From: Clostridia bacterium
GTDB lineage: Bacteria > Bacillota > Clostridia > UBA1381 > UMGS1253
Direction of reading: 5' to 3'
DNA length: 64,000 nt
Assembly: GCA_045578865.1 (NCBI GenBank)
Contig: JAZNLB010000003.1
Span: 559 to 64,558 of the forward strand
In this document: piece by piece, positions 3,407 to 49,452 of the stretch
Layout of the letters: each line of letters begins with the position of its first letter
Position numbering within the stretch: the first letter of the stretch is position 1
Notes under the pieces: model-generated
Databases searched by the model: none
Seen by the model: only the letters and a program-made list of their open reading frames with translations
Told to the model about the DNA's origin: nothing
Translations under genes and position numbers: made by a program

Positions 3407-4591
3407 ATGACAGTTCAAGATATGAAAAAAATGTTTTTAGAGGTTTATGGTGGTGATGATTTAGAACTTCGTATATTTGAATCGCCGGGCAGAGTGAATC
3501 TTATTGGTGAGCATATTGACTATTGTGGCGGTTGTGTAATGCCGGCGGCACTTACAATGAAAACTACAATTATTGCAAGAAAAAGAAATGACGATGTTAT
3601 TCGTTTGAAAGCAACTGATTTGGATTTGATGGTTGAAACAACTATACCTGAAATGGCGAAACTCAAAGGTAAAATAAAATGGGGAGATTACCAAATAGGT
3701 GTGGCTTTGGAACTCATAAATGCCGGATATGATATTTGTGGTTGTGATTTATTATACGATGACACAGTTCCACATGGCGGCGGGCTTTCGTCATCTGCCG
3801 CAATAGAGGTATCTACTGCACTCATGTTTGCCACCTTTGCAAATGAAAAGACGGGAAGCAATAAAGAAATCGACATGATAGAAATGGCGTTGCTTTCGCA
3901 AAAAGCAGAACATAATTTTATTGATGTAAAATGCGGAATTATGGATCAGTTTGCATCTGCTATGGGAAAAGCAGACCATGCAATATATTTGAACTGTGCC
4001 ACATTGGAGTATGAGCACATACCGCTAAAAATGGACGGATACAAAATTGTGCTTACAAATACCAATGTAAAGCATTCTCTTGGCAGTTCCAAGTATAATG
4101 AAAGACGAAAAGAATGTGAAGAAGGCTTATCTGTATTAAAAACTGCCATGCCGAATATTAATCAGCTTGCTGATGTTTCACCTGAAAAATTTGAATTACA
4201 TAAAGACCTAATAGCAGATTTGATCGTGCAAAAACGCATAAAGCATGTTGTATATGAGTGCGACAGAGTTAAAAAGAGCGCCCAAGCTCTAAAAAACAAT
4301 GAAATTGATAAATTCGGGGAATTCATGAATGCTTCTCATAATTCTTTGCAATATGATTATGAGGTTACATGTCCTGAATTAGATTTTGTCGTACAGGAAG
4401 GAAGACAAATCGAGGGTGTTCTTGGAATAAGAATGACCGGGGCAGGATTTGGCGGCTGTACTGTGGCTATCATAAAGGATGAGAGCATTGATAAGTACAT
4501 TGAAATTGTTGGGACAAAATATAAAGAAAAATTTGGACACGAAGCTACATTTTATGTTACAGAAATAGGAGACGGCGGTAGAGAAATATAA
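3407..4591 (+). CDS. galK: Galactokinase
   Basis: 394 aa. Galactokinase signature GRVNLIGEHIDY and GHMP kinase motif PHGGGLSSSAA. Confidence 0.95.
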   Translation: MTVQDMKKMFLEVYGGDDLELRIFESPGRVNLIGEHIDYCGGCVMPAALTMKTTIIARKRNDDVIRLKATDLDLMVETTIPEMAKLKGKIKWGDYQIGVALELINAGYDICGCDLLYDDTVPHGGGLSSSAAIEVSTALMFATFANEKTGSNKEIDMIEMALLSQKAEHNFIDVKCGIMDQFASAMGKADHAIYLNCATLEYEHIPLKMDGYKIVLTNTNVKHSLGSSKYNERRKECEEGLSVLKTAMPNINQLADVSPEKFELHKDLIADLIVQKRIKHVVYECDRVKKSAQALKNNEIDKFGEFMNASHNSLQYDYEVTCPELDFVVQEGRQIEGVLGIRMTGAGFGGCTVAIIKDESIDKYIEIVGTKYKEKFGHEATFYVTEIGDGGREI

Positions 4592-4627
4592 AACAAAAGA
4601 AACTATAAAAATCATTTGGCTCGACCT

Positions 4628-4677
4628 AAAAGAATAGCACATGATTTGTTCAAAACAATCATGTGCTATTCTTTTTC
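4628..4677. terminator. Bidirectional intrinsic terminator between convergent galK and the XRE gene
   Basis: 16-bp perfect stem: agaatagcacatgatt (4631-4646) pairs with aatcatgtgctattct (4657-4672). Flanked by an A-run and a T-run. Confidence 0.8.
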
Positions 4678-4866
4678 AAACTTAATAATGTCTTCTACTT
4701 TGCAATCAAGTGCATAACAAAGGGCATCAAGAGTTTTGGTGCTGATTGCTTCACCCTTTTTTATTCTGTGGAGAGTGTTTGCAGAAAAACCTTGTTTAAA
4801 TATCAAAAAATATTCAGTTAATCCCTTTTTAAAAAGAGTATTATAAAAAGGTTTGTAACTAATCAT
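4666..4866 (-). CDS. Small XRE/Cro-type helix-turn-helix transcriptional regulator
   Basis: Track ORF 4666-4878. The ATG at 4866 follows GGTGA. Sequence ...FSANTLHRIKKGEAISTKTLDALCYALDCKVEDIIKF is a typical short HTH_XRE protein. Confidence 0.8.
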   Translation of the reverse strand: MISYKPFYNTLFKKGLTEYFLIFKQGFSANTLHRIKKGEAISTKTLDALCYALDCKVEDIIKFEKE

Positions 4867-5038
4867 TAATATCACCAAAACAATATTATCATACTTAAAG
4901 TATTGACAATACTCAACAAAATGAGTATAATCGTTGTATTAGAAAAATGAGTATATTACATTCAACGGTTTAAACTGTACCCATACCTACATTATAATCA
5001 TACATGAAGAGGGGAAAAAATGAGAACAGCATTGGGAT
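4861..5038. repeat. Copy 2 of the ~175-bp direct repeat (functional XRE/GGDEF divergent promoter region)
   Basis: See 567-742. This copy runs from the XRE start codon to the first ~6 codons of the GGDEF gene. Confidence 0.85.
4903..4931 (+). promoter_or_regulatory. Sigma-A type promoter of the GGDEF gene
   Basis: TTGACA (4903-4908), 17 nt, TATAAT (4926-4931). Paralogous to the promoter at 609-637. Confidence 0.6.
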
Positions 5039-5616
5039 TGACAGCGGTCATAACAATATTACTAATGATTATTATATTAAAACTTTTATTAAAAATTCGA
5101 GTTCTTCGCAAAAAAAATAAATATGTTGATGAAGCAAATATGTGGCATAGACTTGCCGTTACAGATGACTTAACAGGGATTTATAATAGAAATGCGTATA
5201 ACATATATATGGAGAGGGCCAAAGTAGACGCGAAACATAAAGAAAGGGGAATTATCCTTTTCGATGTTGATAATTTTAAAATAATCAATGACACACAAGG
5301 TCATCTGGCTGGAGATGCTGTGTTGAAGAATGTGGCGAAAAATCTTACGGAGGTTTTTTTAGAGCCTCAATATAGTGTTTTTCGTATAGGTGGAGATGAA
5401 TTTGCTGTTTTGTCCAAAGGCGTTTCAGAAAAGGAAATGATTGAACGGTTGATTATTTTAAGAAAGATACTCAACGATAATGGCGATATCAGTTTATCAA
5501 TAGGATATTCAATGATTAAAGATACGCAGGAGAAAGCATTTGGGTATGCAGATGATATGCTTTATGCGGATAAACTATCTAAAAAATTGCGAAACTGTCC
5601 TTTGGAGCCCACATGA
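5020..5616 (+). CDS. Membrane-anchored diguanylate cyclase (GGDEF domain)
   Basis: 198 aa. N-terminal hydrophobic helix (LTAVITILLMIIILKLLL), then a GGDEF domain with an intact RIGGDEF active-site motif and DDLTGIYNR. I see no RxxD I-site 5 residues upstream. Confidence 0.9.
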   Translation: MRTALGLTAVITILLMIIILKLLLKIRVLRKKNKYVDEANMWHRLAVTDDLTGIYNRNAYNIYMERAKVDAKHKERGIILFDVDNFKIINDTQGHLAGDAVLKNVAKNLTEVFLEPQYSVFRIGGDEFAVLSKGVSEKEMIERLIILRKILNDNGDISLSIGYSMIKDTQEKAFGYADDMLYADKLSKKLRNCPLEPT

Positions 5617-19036: not shown

Positions 19037-19079
19037 TTATAATGTAATTTAAAGTTAGATGTGGAAAAGAGGAACAATC

Positions 19080-19985
19080 ATGTATGATATTTTGATATTC
19101 GGTGCCGGAACGGCGGGACTTACGGCGGCGATTTATGGCGTTCGTGCAGGCAGAAAGGTTGCTGTTTTGGAGGAGGGCGTGTACGGCGGACAGATTGTGA
19201 ATACCTTGGAGATTGAAAACTATCCTGGCATTGCTAAGGTTTCGGGAGTGGATTATGCGACCGGTCTTTTTGAACAGGCAACGAATCTCGGTGCAGAAGT
19301 CATGTTTGATGCCCCGGTGTCGGTAGAAAAAACGGATGGTTTTGTCGTGCAGACCAGACGCGGCAAGACGCTGGAGGCTAAGTCGCTGATTTTGGCGGTC
19401 GGCGCGAAGAACAGACCGCTCGGCGTGGACGGTGAAGAAAAATTTGTGGGGCGCGGCATTTCGTACTGTGCAACATGTGACGGCGCATTTTTCAAAGGCA
19501 AGGATGTGGCGGTGGTCGGTGGCGGTAATACGGCCATTGACGATGCGTTGTTTTTGACGGACTACTGTAATAAGGTGTATTTAATTCATCGCAGACAGGG
19601 CTTTCGTGCCGAGGAAGCAAAACTGGCACTTTTACGAGAAAAGAAGAATCTTGAATTTGTGCTCGACAGTGTGGTTGAAGCCGTGCAGGGTGAAGATAAA
19701 CTGGCGGGTGTCACTATAAAAAACAAGGTGACAGAGGCGGTGGAGCACCTGGCGCTTGACGGCATATTTGTTGCGGTGGGACAGGTTCCGGCAACCAAGA
19801 TTGCCGAAGGGCTTGTGGCGCTGGACGATTATGGTTATATCGTAGCAGGTGAAGATTGCAAGACGAGCGCTGAGGGCATTTTTGCGGCAGGCGACTGTCG
19901 CACAAAGCAGATTCGTCAGTTGGTAACTGCGGCGGCGGATGGTGCGGTGGCGGCGCTTGCGGCTTGCGAGTATATTCGTAAATAA
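19080..19985 (+). CDS. trxB: Thioredoxin-disulfide reductase
   Basis: Track ORF 19059-19985. ATG at 19080 after AAAAGAGGA. FAD motif GAGTAGLTAA, redox-active CATCDG, NADPH motif GGGNTA. Confidence 0.9.
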   Translation: MYDILIFGAGTAGLTAAIYGVRAGRKVAVLEEGVYGGQIVNTLEIENYPGIAKVSGVDYATGLFEQATNLGAEVMFDAPVSVEKTDGFVVQTRRGKTLEAKSLILAVGAKNRPLGVDGEEKFVGRGISYCATCDGAFFKGKDVAVVGGGNTAIDDALFLTDYCNKVYLIHRRQGFRAEEAKLALLREKKNLEFVLDSVVEAVQGEDKLAGVTIKNKVTEAVEHLALDGIFVAVGQVPATKIAEGLVALDDYGYIVAGEDCKTSAEGIFAAGDCRTKQIRQLVTAAADGAVAALAACEYIRK

Positions 19986-31280: not shown

Positions 31281-31292
31281 AAATATAGAGAA

Positions 31293-31425
31293 ATCTTCAG
31301 GGTTGGGTGCAATTCCCTACCGGCGGTAAAAATTGGTTTTTTAAAAATCAGTTCAAGCCCGCGAGTCGAAAGACTGACTCGGTGTGATTCCGAGGCCGAC
31401 GGTAAAGTCCGGATGAAAGAAGATA
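31293..31425 (+). promoter_or_regulatory. FMN riboswitch (RFN element)
   Basis: Conserved RFN blocks: tcttcagggttgggtgcaattccctaccggcggta ... agcccgcgag ... tcggtgtgattccgaggccgacggtaaagtccggatgaaagaaga. P1 pairs tcttc with gaaga. Followed by a T-rich tract and a weak hairpin, ccctg..caggg plus T-run (31447-31471). Confidence 0.9.
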
Positions 31426-31513
31426 TGTTTTTTCTTTTTTTGTGTGCCCTGTGATTTTTCAGGGTTTTTTTAAATTTTTCGCATCAGCGAAAGCAACGGA
31501 GGGAGAAAAAACA

Positions 31514-43629: not shown

Positions 43630-43725
43630 ATAAACCGTATTCCCCTCGGCTTATGAACGAATACTACGGCGAAGGCTTGACAGCACAAAGGCCATAAGGT
43701 ACAATGAGCAAAAGGAGTGAATGCT

Positions 43726-44415
43726 ATGCAGATTTGCAGTTTAATTAAACTATCCTTAAACGATTACCCGGGCAAGATGGCGTGCACATTGTTTACCGGT
43801 GGATGCAATTTGCGTTGCCCGTTTTGTCATAATGGACCGCTTGTACTGGAGGAGCCGATAGCGGAAGTAGCACAAGAGGAGTTTTTTGCTTTTTTACAAA
43901 AACGCAAGGGAATTTTAGATGGCGTATGCATCAGTGGCGGCGAGCCTCTTTTGCAACCGGATATTGAACCATTTATCCGCAAAATCAAGGCACTTGATTA
44001 CAGCGTGAAGCTTGACACCAATGGCACGATGCCCGACAAACTGATAGCGCTTTGCGAGCAGGAGCTTATAGATTATGTGGCGATGGACATCAAAAACAGC
44101 AAAGAAAAGTATGCACTTACCGTCGGCGTCGAAAATTTTGATATAGCAAAAATCGAAAAAAGTGTGGATTATTTGCTTTCGGGTAAGGTGGAATATGAGT
44201 TTCGGACTACCCTTGTAGCGGAATTTCACACACCACAAGATATTGTGGATATAGGAAAATGGATTTCGGGGGCAAAACGCTACTATATGGCAGTGTTTCG
44301 CGATGGAGAAACCGTGATACATAGTGGCTTGCACGCCCCGAAAAGTGCGGATTTACAGGCGTTTGAAGCTGCTGTAACGCCTTTTGTCGGGGAAGTGCAT
44401 TTGCGTGGCATATAA
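43726..44415 (+). CDS. nrdG: Anaerobic ribonucleoside-triphosphate reductase activating protein (radical SAM)
   Basis: Track ORF 43717-44415. ATG at 43726 after AAGGAG. DYPGKMACTLFTGGCNLRCPFCHN cluster motif. Confidence 0.85.
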   Translation: MQICSLIKLSLNDYPGKMACTLFTGGCNLRCPFCHNGPLVLEEPIAEVAQEEFFAFLQKRKGILDGVCISGGEPLLQPDIEPFIRKIKALDYSVKLDTNGTMPDKLIALCEQELIDYVAMDIKNSKEKYALTVGVENFDIAKIEKSVDYLLSGKVEYEFRTTLVAEFHTPQDIVDIGKWISGAKRYYMAVFRDGETVIHSGLHAPKSADLQAFEAAVTPFVGEVHLRGI

Positions 44416-44444: not shown

Positions 44445-44483
44445 ACACAATATATTGACAACAAAATATAGTAGTGTTATAAT
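44445..44483 (+). promoter_or_regulatory. nrdD promoter overlapped by two NrdR-box-like palindromes
   Basis: acacaatatattgaca (44445-44460) and acaaaatatagtagtgt (44461-44477) resemble the NrdR box (acaCwAtATaTwgtgt). TTGACA (44455-44460), 17 nt, TATAAT (44478-44483). Confidence 0.6.
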
Positions 44484-44600: not shown

Positions 44601-46961
44601 ATGTATCAGGTAATGAAACGCGACGGCGAGCTTGTGGAGTTCGATATTTCGAAAATCAGTGCAGCCATCACAAAAGCCTTTGATGCACAGGGCAAGCAGT
44701 ATCATCCGAGCGTAATTGATTTGCTTGCGCTTAAAGTGACGGCAGAATTTGAGCCGAAAATCAAAAATGATGTTATTAAAGTGGAGGACATTCAGGATAG
44801 CGTGGAGTCCGTGCTCATTTTGGGCGGTTATGCCGATGTTGCAAAGGCATATATTCTTTATCGTCGTCAGCGCGAAAAGGTGCGCGCAACGAAAGCAACC
44901 TTATTAAACTATAAAGACCTCGTAAACAGTTATGTTAAGGTAACGGACTGGCGTGTAAAGGAGAACTCAACGGTTACATATTCTGTAGGCGGTTTGATTT
45001 TGTCCAACTCCGGTGCGATTACCGCAAACTACTGGTTATCCGAAATCTACGATGACGATATTGCAAACGCACATCGTCGCGCAGACATTCACATTCACGA
45101 CCTTTCGATGTTGACAGGATATTGTGCGGGTTGGTCTTTAAAACAACTCATTCAGGAAGGTCTTGGCGGCGTCAACGGAAAGATTACCTCCAAACCGGCA
45201 AGCCATTTATCCACACTGTGCAATCAAATGGTGAACTTCCTCGGTATCATGCAGAACGAGTGGGCAGGCGCGCAGGCGTTTTCTTCATTTGATACCTACC
45301 TTGCACCATTCGTAAAGGTGGACAACCTTTCTTATTACGAAGTGAAAAAGTGCATTGAGTCCTTCGTGTTCGGTGTAAATATCCCGAGCCGTTGGGGTAC
45401 ACAGGCACCGTTTTCCAATATCACTCTCGATTGGACCGTTCCGGCCGACCTTGCGGAGCAGAACTGTATCGTAGGCGGCAAGGAAGTAGACTTTAAGTAC
45501 AAAGACTGTAAGGCCGAGATGGATATGATTAACAAGGCCTTCATCGAAATCATGATTGAGGGTGATGCAAATGGTCGCGGATTCCAGTATCCGATTCCGA
45601 CCTATTCCATCACACGCGATTTTGACTGGTCCGAATCCGAAAACAACAAGTTGCTCTTTGAGATGACCTCCAAATACGGCACACCGTACTTCTCTAACTA
45701 CATCAACAGCGATATGGAGCCGAGTGATGTACGCAGTATGTGCTGCCGTCTGCGTCTGGATTTAAGAGAACTGCGTAAAAAGTCCGGTGGTTTCTTCGGT
45801 AGTGGTGAAAGTACCGGTAGCGTCGGTGTTGTAACGATCAATATGCCGCGTATTGCGTATATGTCTGAAAACGAGCAGGAGTTCTATGCGCGTTTGGACA
45901 ACTTAATGGATATTTCCGCGCGATCTTTGAAAATCAAGCGCACGGTTATCACAAAACTGTTAAACGAAGGCTTGTATCCGTACACAAAGCGTTACCTCGG
46001 CTCGTTTGAAAACCACTTTTCGACCATTGGTTTGGTGGGTATGAACGAAGCGGGTTTGAATGCAAAGTGGCTCAAAGCGGATATGACGAGCGAAAAGACA
46101 CAGAAGTTTACGCAGAATGTTTTAAATCATATGCGTGAAAGACTTTCCGATTATCAGGAAAAGTACGGTGATTTGTACAACTTGGAAGCAACACCGGCCG
46201 AGTCGACTTCTTATCGTCTTGCAAAGCATGATGTAGAGCAGTTCGGTGACATTGTTACCGCAAACGAAAATGGTACGCCGTACTACACCAACTCGTCGCA
46301 TTTGCCGGTTGGTTACACCGACGATATTTTTGAAGCACTCTCCATTCAGGATGATTTGCAGACCTTGTATACTTCGGGGACTGTATTTCATGCCTTCCTT
46401 GGCGAGAAGTTGCCGGATTGGAAAGCCGCAGCAACATTGGTTCGCAAGATTGCACAAAACCATCGCTTGCCGTATTACACACTTTCGCCGACCTACTCCG
46501 TATGTAAAAATCATGGTTACCTAAGCGGTGAGGTTTATACCTGCCCGCAGTGCGGCGAAAAGACAGAGGTTTACAGCCGTATCACAGGCTATTATCGTCC
46601 GGTACAAAACTGGAATGATGGTAAGAGTCAGGAATTTAAGGACAGAAAGGTTTACGATATAGAAAAATCCGATTTGCGTGCACCGGCAACCCCGATTCGC
46701 GCAGAGGATGCTCCGGTAAGTGCCCCGGCAGTAGAAAAGACCTTGTTGTTTACAACAAAGACCTGCCCGAACTGTAAGATTGCGGCAACCATGCTCGGTA
46801 GTGCCGGCATCGAGTATACCAAGGTGGATGCCCAAGAGGTGGCCGATCTTACAAAATCGCTTGGCATCACGCAGGCACCGACGCTTGTTGTAAGAGAAGG
46901 CGATAGCCAGAAAATTTACAGCGGTATTGGTGATATCACCAAGTATTTGCAAAATAACTAA
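44601..46961 (+). CDS. nrdD: Anaerobic (class III) ribonucleoside-triphosphate reductase with a C-terminal glutaredoxin/NrdH-like domain
   Basis: Track ORF 44577-46961. ATG at 44601 after GTGGGGGG. N-terminal ATP-cone, Zn-ribbon CKNHGY..CPQCG, glycyl-radical motif SRITGYYRP (Gly codon 46587-46589). A ~95-aa extension follows, containing FTTKTCPNCK (Cys codons 46764-46775). Confidence 0.9.
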   Translation: MYQVMKRDGELVEFDISKISAAITKAFDAQGKQYHPSVIDLLALKVTAEFEPKIKNDVIKVEDIQDSVESVLILGGYADVAKAYILYRRQREKVRATKATLLNYKDLVNSYVKVTDWRVKENSTVTYSVGGLILSNSGAITANYWLSEIYDDDIANAHRRADIHIHDLSMLTGYCAGWSLKQLIQEGLGGVNGKITSKPASHLSTLCNQMVNFLGIMQNEWAGAQAFSSFDTYLAPFVKVDNLSYYEVKKCIESFVFGVNIPSRWGTQAPFSNITLDWTVPADLAEQNCIVGGKEVDFKYKDCKAEMDMINKAFIEIMIEGDANGRGFQYPIPTYSITRDFDWSESENNKLLFEMTSKYGTPYFSNYINSDMEPSDVRSMCCRLRLDLRELRKKSGGFFGSGESTGSVGVVTINMPRIAYMSENEQEFYARLDNLMDISARSLKIKRTVITKLLNEGLYPYTKRYLGSFENHFSTIGLVGMNEAGLNAKWLKADMTSEKTQKFTQNVLNHMRERLSDYQEKYGDLYNLEATPAESTSYRLAKHDVEQFGDIVTANENGTPYYTNSSHLPVGYTDDIFEALSIQDDLQTLYTSGTVFHAFLGEKLPDWKAAATLVRKIAQNHRLPYYTLSPTYSVCKNHGYLSGEVYTCPQCGEKTEVYSRITGYYRPVQNWNDGKSQEFKDRKVYDIEKSDLRAPATPIRAEDAPVSAPAVEKTLLFTTKTCPNCKIAATMLGSAGIEYTKVDAQEVADLTKSLGITQAPTLVVREGDSQKIYSGIGDITKYLQNN

Positions 46962-46970
46962 GATACAATA

Positions 46971-46997
46971 AAAAAGCACCCGCAGGGTGCTTTTTTA
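46971..46997 (+). terminator. Intrinsic terminator after nrdD
   Basis: aaaaagcaccc gca gggtgcttttttatt. Confidence 0.85.
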
Positions 46998-47261
46998 TTG
47001 CGGATAATTACTTTTCTTCTTCAATGTTTTCCAATGCCACTTTTACCGCCTTCACTACAAAAGAGATAAAGGGGCATGCTTTTCCGTCGATTGCTTTTTC
47101 AAAGGATATTCTACGCTTTGCAAAAGTAATGTTTTTGATAAATTAAAAGTGGTATTGGGTTTGATTCGTGGATACCGATTGTAAGTAAAAATTTGTGCCT
47201 AAACGCAGCTTGGTTGACAAAACTTGTAGAATTGTGTAAAATATAAAAGAGGTGAAAGCAG

Positions 47262-49288: not shown

Positions 49289-49373
49289 TGGTGGAAGAGG
49301 ATGGATTCGAACCATCGAAGCTGAAAGCAACAGATTTACAGTCTGCCCCCTTTGGCCACTCGGGAACTCTTCC
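49289..49373 (-). tRNA. tRNA-Tyr (anticodon GTA), CCA encoded
   Basis: Reverse complement is GGAAGAGTTCCCGAGTGGCCAAAGGGGGCAGACTGTAAATCTGTTGCTTTCAGCTTCGATGGTTCGAATCCATCCTCTTCCACCA. It has a 7-bp acceptor stem, anticodon loop CTGTAAA, a long variable arm and a GGTTCGAATCC T-arm. Confidence 0.9.
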
Positions 49374-49376
49374 GTA

Positions 49377-49452
49377 TGGAGCTGGTGATGGGACTCGAAC
49401 CCGCAACCTGCTGATTACAAATCAGCTGCTCTGCCAATTGAGCTACACCAGC
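49377..49452 (-). tRNA. tRNA-Thr (anticodon TGT), CCA encoded
   Basis: Reverse complement is GCTGGTGTAGCTCAATTGGCAGAGCAGCTGATTTGTAATCAGCAGGTTGCGGGTTCGAGTCCCATCACCAGCTCCA. It has anticodon stem-loop GCTGA-TTTGTAA-TCAGC and a GGGTTCGAGTCCC T-arm. Confidence 0.9.

Follow-up and report, generated by a model that had tools for sequence, protein, structure and literature searches.

A thioredoxin-fold redoxin domain fused to the class III ribonucleotide reductase NrdD of gut Clostridia

The window analysed here is a 64,000-nt stretch from a Clostridia bacterium (GTDB UBA1381; UMGS1253), positions 559 to 64,558 of contig JAZNLB010000003.1 in assembly GCA_045578865.1. One continuous open reading frame (ORF) on its + strand runs from 44577 (TTG) or 44601 (ATG) to a stop codon at 46959-46961. 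Judging by its domains, its glycyl-radical motif and the adjacent nrdG gene, the encoded protein is a class III ribonucleoside-triphosphate reductase (NrdD), and it ends in an additional redoxin domain. Residues are numbered from ATG 44601 because the 100% identical 786-aa database protein P0121 uses that start, and residue conservation was counted in an alignment of 184 full-length fused proteins. The features of the gene, in window coordinates, are the following.

44601-46961, + strand: nrdD::redoxin, 786 aa plus stop codon, with ATP-cone, NrdD barrel, glycyl-radical domain, linker and redoxin domain
44607-44876, + strand: ATP-cone, residues 3-92 (PF03477, 81.5 bits against a cut-off of 25.8)
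45123-45125, + strand: C175, beta-A active-site Cys, aligned by HMMER with Thermotoga maritima C125; invariant in 184/184
45738-45749, + strand: finger loop M380-C381-C382-R383, aligned with T. maritima S328-C329-C330-R331; invariant in 184/184
46185-46187, + strand: E529, NrdD2-type active-site Glu, aligned with T. maritima E495; invariant in 184/184
46503-46553, + strand: putative Cys3His zinc ribbon C635, H638, C648, C651, read from the sequence; invariant in 183-184/184
46587-46589, + strand: G663, glycyl-radical site (RITGYYRP); kept in 183/184 fused relatives
46680-46742, + strand: linker, residues 694-714 (APATPIRAEDAPVSAPAVEKT), Pro/Ala-rich, free of Cys, ~21 aa
46743-46958, + strand: thioredoxin-fold redoxin domain, residues 715-786 (72 aa), from Pfam, AlphaFold2 and Foldseek
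46764-46775, + strand: CPNC redox motif, C722/C725; invariant in 184/184
46875-46883, + strand: A759-P760-T761, cis-Pro loop before beta-3; P760 invariant in 184/184

The NRDD domain (Pfam PF13597) scores 632.4 bits against a cut-off of 26.2, the NCBIfam equivalog model NF006126 1137.1 bits against 548, and TIGR02487 516.7 bits against 326.35. The RxxGY motif following a Cys/His zinc ribbon aligns with the C-termini of the T. maritima and P. copri NrdDs. The ribbon is of the Cys3His rather than the Cys4 type, and the T. maritima segment has a His as well. The sequence-only reading had proposed that this NrdD continues well past its radical glycine, and so it does, at exactly the positions given: 123 residues follow G663, compared with 30 in T. 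maritima NrdD (G621 of 651) and 32 in P. copri NrdD (G711 of 743).

A per-column conservation profile of 209 C-termini divides this end of the protein into three zones: a near-invariant glycyl-radical end up to about residue 693, an unconserved stretch at 694-714 and a conserved one at 715-786. The linker columns are 3-45% conserved and the linker varies in length among relatives; in the 184-protein alignment its identity to relatives is ~10%, against 86% for the core. Within the redoxin zone L716, F717, T721, C722, P723, C725, L732, A759 and P760 are 100% columns. Given to Pfam alone, the tail matches Thioredoxin (PF00085, 25.9 bits against a cut-off of 23.5) and Glutaredoxin (PF00462, 25.7 against 22.9), while on the full-length protein the same models fall just under their cut-offs (21.5 and 22.1 bits, respectively). 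An AlphaFold2 model built from 130 sequences, covering the tail and not the full-length enzyme, has predicted confidence (pLDDT) above 90 over a beta-alpha-beta-alpha-beta-beta-alpha core and below 50 in the linker. In this model CPNC lies between strand E24-29 and helix H34-46, where helix 1 begins; the A759-P760-T761 loop precedes strand E72-77, a placement in which P760 would adopt the cis geometry. Foldseek matches from the PDB at probability 1.00 include thioredoxins, a-domains of protein disulfide isomerase and Grx2. Among solved proteins the closest in sequence is the desulfothioredoxin 2L6C (E = 5e-5); glutaredoxins and NrdH-redoxins come next.

A thioredoxin fold with a CxxC motif and a cis-Pro region, as first suspected from the letters of the DNA, is thus borne out, CPNC and P760 being invariant. 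The accompanying label "glutaredoxin/NrdH-like" holds for the fold and fails for the family. TIGR02194 (NrdH-redoxin) reaches 23.1 bits against a cut-off of 85.75, and the motif is CPNC, not CVQC; the best NCBIfam match, TIGR02196 (YruB family), stops at 28.7 bits against 88.55; the classical glutaredoxin models TIGR02181 (Grx3) and NF007923 give 20.1 against 90 and 16.4 against 129. It seems most apt to place the tail in a separate family of small thioredoxin-fold redoxins, recognisable by LFTTKTCPNC...QAPTL.

CPNC is the sole CxxC of the tail in 117 of 120 full-length matches and in 74 of 80 loci (both sets are described below), the others adding a motif in the linker. At least two Cys occur in the linker of 70 out of 272 homologous tails, mostly as CxC, CC or CxxC (examples are EEVCACAG, GGCCTP and DECCCECAG), and none occurs in the linker of the window protein. 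By analogy with the C-terminal tails of class I/II ribonucleotide reductases (RNRs), such a linker pair could serve as a second shuttle pair.

The fusion is genuine and occurs commonly among gut Clostridia. All of the 120 best full-length database matches, ~80-100% identical to the window protein, are single ORFs of 784-950 aa. The tail follows a recognisable RITGY motif in 119 of them, and the remaining protein (P0225, 800 aa) fails the motif search yet has CPNC. A precomputed redoxin match is missing in 24 of these 120 close homologues. A search with the tail alone returned 192 clusters, nearly all annotated with NRDD plus a redoxin Pfam domain. Scanning one genome per GTDB species with the trimmed tail alignment gave at least 600 stretches, some of which may match the glycyl-radical segment alone, and at least 595 confirmed relatives. 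From the stretches listed, 80 loci (L001-L080) were fetched as sequence, to which all loci counts refer, and each of the 80 holds one ORF of ~800 codons with a CPNC tail. Among them are the cultured strains Pseudoflavonifractor phocaeensis, [Eubacterium] hominis and Acutalibacteraceae SVS042, a Faecalibacterium prausnitzii genome and a HiFi-assembled chromosome. Among the genomes returned, those of Oscillospiraceae, Acutalibacteraceae, Christensenellales and Lachnospiraceae have the fused form of NrdD. The fusion, whose spread the sequence-only reading had left to a survey, is common. All 184 fused sequences form one clade, with cores ~86% identical.

Comparison with a 96%-identical relative by the Nei-Gojobori method yields ratios of nonsynonymous to synonymous substitution rates (dN/dS) of 0.017 for the core, 0.30 for the linker and 0.12 for the redoxin domain, figures that are approximate because dS is near saturation. 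These values indicate that purifying selection acts on the redoxin tail; together with the invariance of CPNC and P760 in 184/184, they speak for far more than coincidence.

A few database entries depart from this layout. Two homologues exceed the usual 785-800 aa, P0123 (950 aa, 160 residues extra) and P0122 (826 aa), the latter with its start called 40 residues upstream. Stand-alone CPNC redoxins were considered as a split ancestor of the fusion, and the short proteins examined (P0086, P0119, P0056) turned out to be nrdD fragments from contig ends or broken genes; no bona fide stand-alone CPNC redoxin was found among the short Met-starting database proteins examined. In the representative library, three of the four proteins P0276, P0277, P0295 and P0241 consist of an N-terminal part of a thioredoxin reductase (TrxR) directly joined to a CPNC redoxin, and in one 309-aa protein of that group repeats of DACDGTRILGTAKAEP stand between two CPNC domains. 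The nrdD-trxB junction may really have been rearranged in these proteins, or they may have been produced as chimeras during assembly.

Turning to the active site, C175, M380, C381, C382, R383, N527, E529, C722, P723, N724, C725 and P760 are invariant in all 184 proteins. The alignment proposed by the sequence-only reading gives the NrdD2 pattern: C175, C381-C382 and E529 fall on T. maritima C125, C329-C330 and E495. The position of E529 is occupied by L or Y in the other three NrdDs of known structure (P. copri 8p23, 9d3x and phage T4), and the P. copri enzyme, which has no Glu there, experimentally requires formate. In the account given in PMC4493059 of Wei et al. 2014, NrdD2 is characterised by a third Cys plus an active-site Glu and includes the thioredoxin-using enzyme of Neisseria bacilliformis; this pattern is tied to redoxin-dependent NrdD2 (PMC4493059, PMC9669993). 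The window protein has both the double-Cys finger loop (C381-C382) and E529. Among the finger-loop motif classes described in PMC9669993, the "thioredoxin-only" NrdD subclades have the Glu and no finger-loop Met; the window protein falls outside them, Met380 being present and invariant. Double-Cys enzymes that keep the Met (MCCR) carry components for formate or thioredoxin (Burnim et al. 2022, PMC9669993), and the window enzyme, by its residues, is in this MCCR+Glu group, judged able to use either donor.

The relatives' loci point to a possible electron source. A TrxR-like ORF (~300-310 aa; CAVCDG, GxGxxG) lies on the same strand 3′ of nrdD::redoxin in 58 of the 80 loci, at ~4380-5350 in locus coordinates, with its start a median of 23 nt past the nrdD::redoxin stop. 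Counting those loci whose sequence extends 1.1 kb or more downstream, 56 of 75 have the gene, and the same order is repeated in L084 (358-1281) and L085 (3278-4168). The HRRxxxR motif for the NADPH 2′-phosphate is kept in 16 of the 58 genes; the other 42 have VQNLxxLTGE. Two representatives, one per motif type, score 305.8 and 334.6 bits, below the TIGR01292 cut-off of 343.45. Since 2L6C is the nearest solved sequence, identity of these paralogues with Desulfovibrio TR3/dcTR1, with the tail as the "missing" Trx3 partner, was considered and rejected: the diagnostic His before CxxC is absent (ISF/VSY) in all 58. Identity with the clostridial ferredoxin-dependent FFTR was not supported, the VQNL-type representative being nearer to canonical TrxRs (254 bits) than to FFTR 6GNA (128).

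The surroundings of nrdD::redoxin in the window, together with its TrxR gene, are as follows.

43717-44415, + strand: nrdG, radical-SAM activase (TIGR02495 NrdG2, 200.2 bits against 131.15; Pfam Radical_SAM and Fer4_12)
44455-44483, + strand: sigma-70-type promoter-like site, TTGACA-17-TATAAT with TG before the -10, 12/12 consensus match
46970-46999, + strand: intrinsic-terminator-like hairpin GCACCC-GCA-GGGTGC followed by T6, right after the stop codon
19059-19985, + strand: canonical low-Mr TrxR (CATCDG, HRRQGFR; TIGR01292, 346.6 bits against 343.45), 25 kb upstream

In the window's lineage the operon ends at the hairpin, and downstream of it the window has an unrelated 176-aa ORF and no trxB. 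The TrxR encoded at 19059-19985 shares 40-54% identity with the paralogues in the operons of the relatives and is probably the reductase of the fused redoxin here, an unlinked candidate whose partnership we infer. No thioredoxin gene adjoins it.

In the reading that we consider probable, the active-site disulfide which every turnover forms between C175 and C381/382 is reduced again by the CPNC domain on its tether, and a TrxR-type flavoprotein in turn regenerates this domain. NrdG would place the radical on G663, from where it would move to a finger-loop Cys (C381 or C382). Reduction of the nucleotide would then leave a disulfide between C175 and the second finger-loop Cys, with E529 as the proton donor. 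Swinging on its disordered ~21-residue linker, the CPNC domain would reach the active site in either its own subunit or the partner and reduce the disulfide there by thiol-disulfide exchange; by geometry alone a linker of this length (~75 Å extended) could reach either active site of the dimer. The oxidised domain would be re-reduced by a TrxR-type flavoprotein, in most relatives by the dedicated paralogue encoded immediately downstream and here probably by the NADPH-type TrxR. Formate may or may not serve as well.

An unconserved, disordered linker beside a conserved redoxin domain is what such a tether would look like, and the TrxR-like gene directly downstream in 56 of 75 relatives' loci agrees with it. 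Several observations weigh on the opposite side. Met380, used in the formate-dependent route through a thiosulfuranyl radical, is invariant in 184/184. The window's lineage has no adjacent reductase gene, and neither have its relatives L081 (96%) and L082 (80%). Because the fused proteins form one clade, the co-occurrence of the tail and the NrdD2 signature probably amounts to about one evolutionary event. The disulfide lies deep in a barrel into which the glycyl-radical domain is inserted, and a folded redoxin must still reach it. Finally, the fused family is so far known through sequences and a predicted structure. That a fused redoxin is evidence for redoxin chemistry, as the sequence-only reading had argued, gains support from the NrdD2-type active site and from the TrxR-like gene of the relatives; with Met380 retained, the fusion is no proof of exclusive thiol dependence.

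One may also speculate, with appreciably less confidence, that NrdD::redoxin and the downstream TrxR-like flavoprotein form a self-contained electron-delivery module for the anaerobic synthesis of DNA precursors in gut Clostridia, fed from NADH, ferredoxin or some further donor in place of NADPH, in which the redoxin enters the active site directly, acting in a quarter of the members through an extra linker Cys pair. The idea of a non-NADPH donor comes from the lack of HRRxxxR in most of the TrxR-like genes. This is possible though on the unlikely side. If true, it would make a fourth class III reductant scheme beside formate, thioredoxin with NADPH, and NrdH with ferredoxin:disulfide reductase, and the window enzyme would be a variant that lost its dedicated reductase.

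Three other explanations have to be set against turnover by the tethered domain. The redoxin might be a maintenance or activation factor that keeps C635, C648 and C651 or the finger-loop Cys pair reduced, for instance following a transient oxidation, to let NrdG place the radical, formate remaining the turnover reductant through Met380 and C175. Activation of E. coli NrdD reportedly needs thioredoxin or dithiothreitol for its C-terminal Cys, and in the window protein the redoxin domain lies ~70 residues from the zinc ribbon. The invariance of Met380 fits such a role too, MCCR enzymes being judged formate-competent (PMC9669993). We nevertheless find it clearly unlikely: E529 and the second finger-loop Cys, the markers of formate-independent reduction, are both invariant, a Zn-bound Cys3His site should need no reductant, and a dedicated TrxR-like gene in ~75% of the relatives' operons suggests a stoichiometric electron flux and not occasional repair.

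The joint presence of Met380, the Cys pair and E529 in 184/184 could instead mean that formate (via Met380) and the tethered redoxin can each complete the cycle, depending on which donor is available. We rate this as improbable, given that in the accessible literature no MCCR+Glu enzyme is shown to use both donors, and that the upkeep of a fused domain, often along with a reductase dedicated to it, speaks for thiols as the main route. A frameshift or an assembly chimera joining nrdD to a separate redoxin gene, which the sequence-only reading had raised as a danger, can be given practically no weight. The short "stand-alone" CPNC proteins in the databases are the one thing in its favour, and those examined are nrdD fragments. 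No stop codon marks a junction of two genes, and the identical single-ORF layout in 120/120 best full-length matches and 80/80 species genomes, hundreds of independent assemblies with isolates and the HiFi chromosome among them, together with the purifying selection on the tail, refutes the artefact.

Class III RNRs that depend on thioredoxin are well established. Among characterised enzymes, the window protein resembles the NrdD2 of N. bacilliformis and T. maritima (PDB 4COI/4U3E) in its beta-A Cys, double-Cys loop and Glu, as well as in having an NrdG partner, a glycyl-radical domain and a Cys/His zinc ribbon. For the former a disulfide chemistry that relies on a thioredoxin-fold protein has been shown, and for the latter it is indicated (PMC4493059). 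Their redoxin is, however, a separate protein and their loop is SCCR, lacking Met, where the window protein has MCCR and a redoxin fused after the glycyl-radical domain; it aligns with T. maritima NrdD at a modest 136 bits.

The type of fusion is not unprecedented. Table S1 of a RefSeq survey lists one "Glutaredoxin:NrdD" fusion, of subclass NrdDd, in Lachnospiraceae bacterium TWA4 (WP_082039398.1; Rozman Grinberg et al. 2018, PMC6187632), so that, going by this 2018 listing, the window adds a member. As listed, the TWA4 protein likewise combines a Pfam Glutaredoxin domain and NrdD in one polypeptide from a Clostridia genome and may belong to the fused family of the window; it is known from that list entry alone, whereas the window's family is large. 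The redoxin domain scores about at the Pfam cut-off (22.1 against 22.9 on the full length) and 24 of 120 homologues have no precomputed match, which is plausibly why the survey found one case. No further description of NrdD-redoxin fusions was found in the searchable literature beyond the PMC6187632 listing.

For class I, the fused redoxin of the Facklamia ignava Grx-ATP-cone-NrdB works experimentally as the reductant of the holoenzyme (PMC6187632). There, too, a CxxC redoxin is joined to an RNR subunit, and in the window's family the two share one polypeptide reproducibly, in 120/120 matches and 80/80 genomes. A similar role as holoenzyme reductant for the domain studied here has indirect support from the invariant CPNC, from the NrdD2-type residues and from the TrxR-like gene linked in relatives. 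The F. ignava domain differs in being GrxC-type and glutathione-dependent, and its target is the Cys pair at the C-terminus of NrdA, not a class III site. In Methanosarcina barkeri NrdD3 the redoxin is reportedly a separate protein, with an Fe-S enzyme rather than a TrxR-type flavoprotein as its reductase. According to PMC5704485 and PMC9176816, this class III RNR, too, is served by a small redoxin, a glutaredoxin-like one from the nrd operon, together with a dedicated reductase (ferredoxin:disulfide reductase). NrdD3 differs by having no Glu and a QCCR/A loop (PMC4493059, PMC9669993) and by its NrdH-like reductant (PMC9176816). The C-terminal tails of class I/II RNRs (PMC5704485, PMC9669993) offer another parallel, being flexible appendages by which a redox Cys pair gets into the active site. 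They differ in consisting of short disordered peptides or Zn-fingers that free Trx/Grx reduces, whereas the appendage here is itself a thioredoxin-fold protein.

Class III RNRs have, to our knowledge, no C-terminal shuttle Cys, and the entry of electrons from a thioredoxin-type protein into the buried glycyl-radical site is for that reason a puzzle. With its invariant CPNC on a short tether, this natural single-chain enzyme lends itself to trapping mixed disulfides, and it suits the questions of whether reduction takes place within a subunit or across the dimer and whether formate, thiols or the two of them serve MCCR+Glu enzymes. The fused NrdD also bears on how DNA synthesis is coupled to redox metabolism in dominant gut anaerobes. 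With a public label that reads plainly "ribonucleoside triphosphate reductase" and a survey that lists one case, the scale of the fusion seems under-appreciated.

As regards expression, the perfect match to the promoter consensus between nrdG and nrdD suggests, as a consensus match alone, a separate nrdD promoter. A palindrome resembling an NrdR box, ACACAATATATTGACA, overlaps its -35 hexamer (44445-44483 region) with 3 mismatches to the consensus; across the window the best sites have 3 mismatches, 2 being found against 0.81 expected, which is near chance. Rfam gave no match in the nrd region, and a plasmid search gave no match. Elsewhere in the window, and unrelated to the fusion, are an FMN riboswitch at 31289-31428 (+ strand; 118 bits against a gathering score of 66) and two adjacent tRNA genes at 49292-49452 (- strand).

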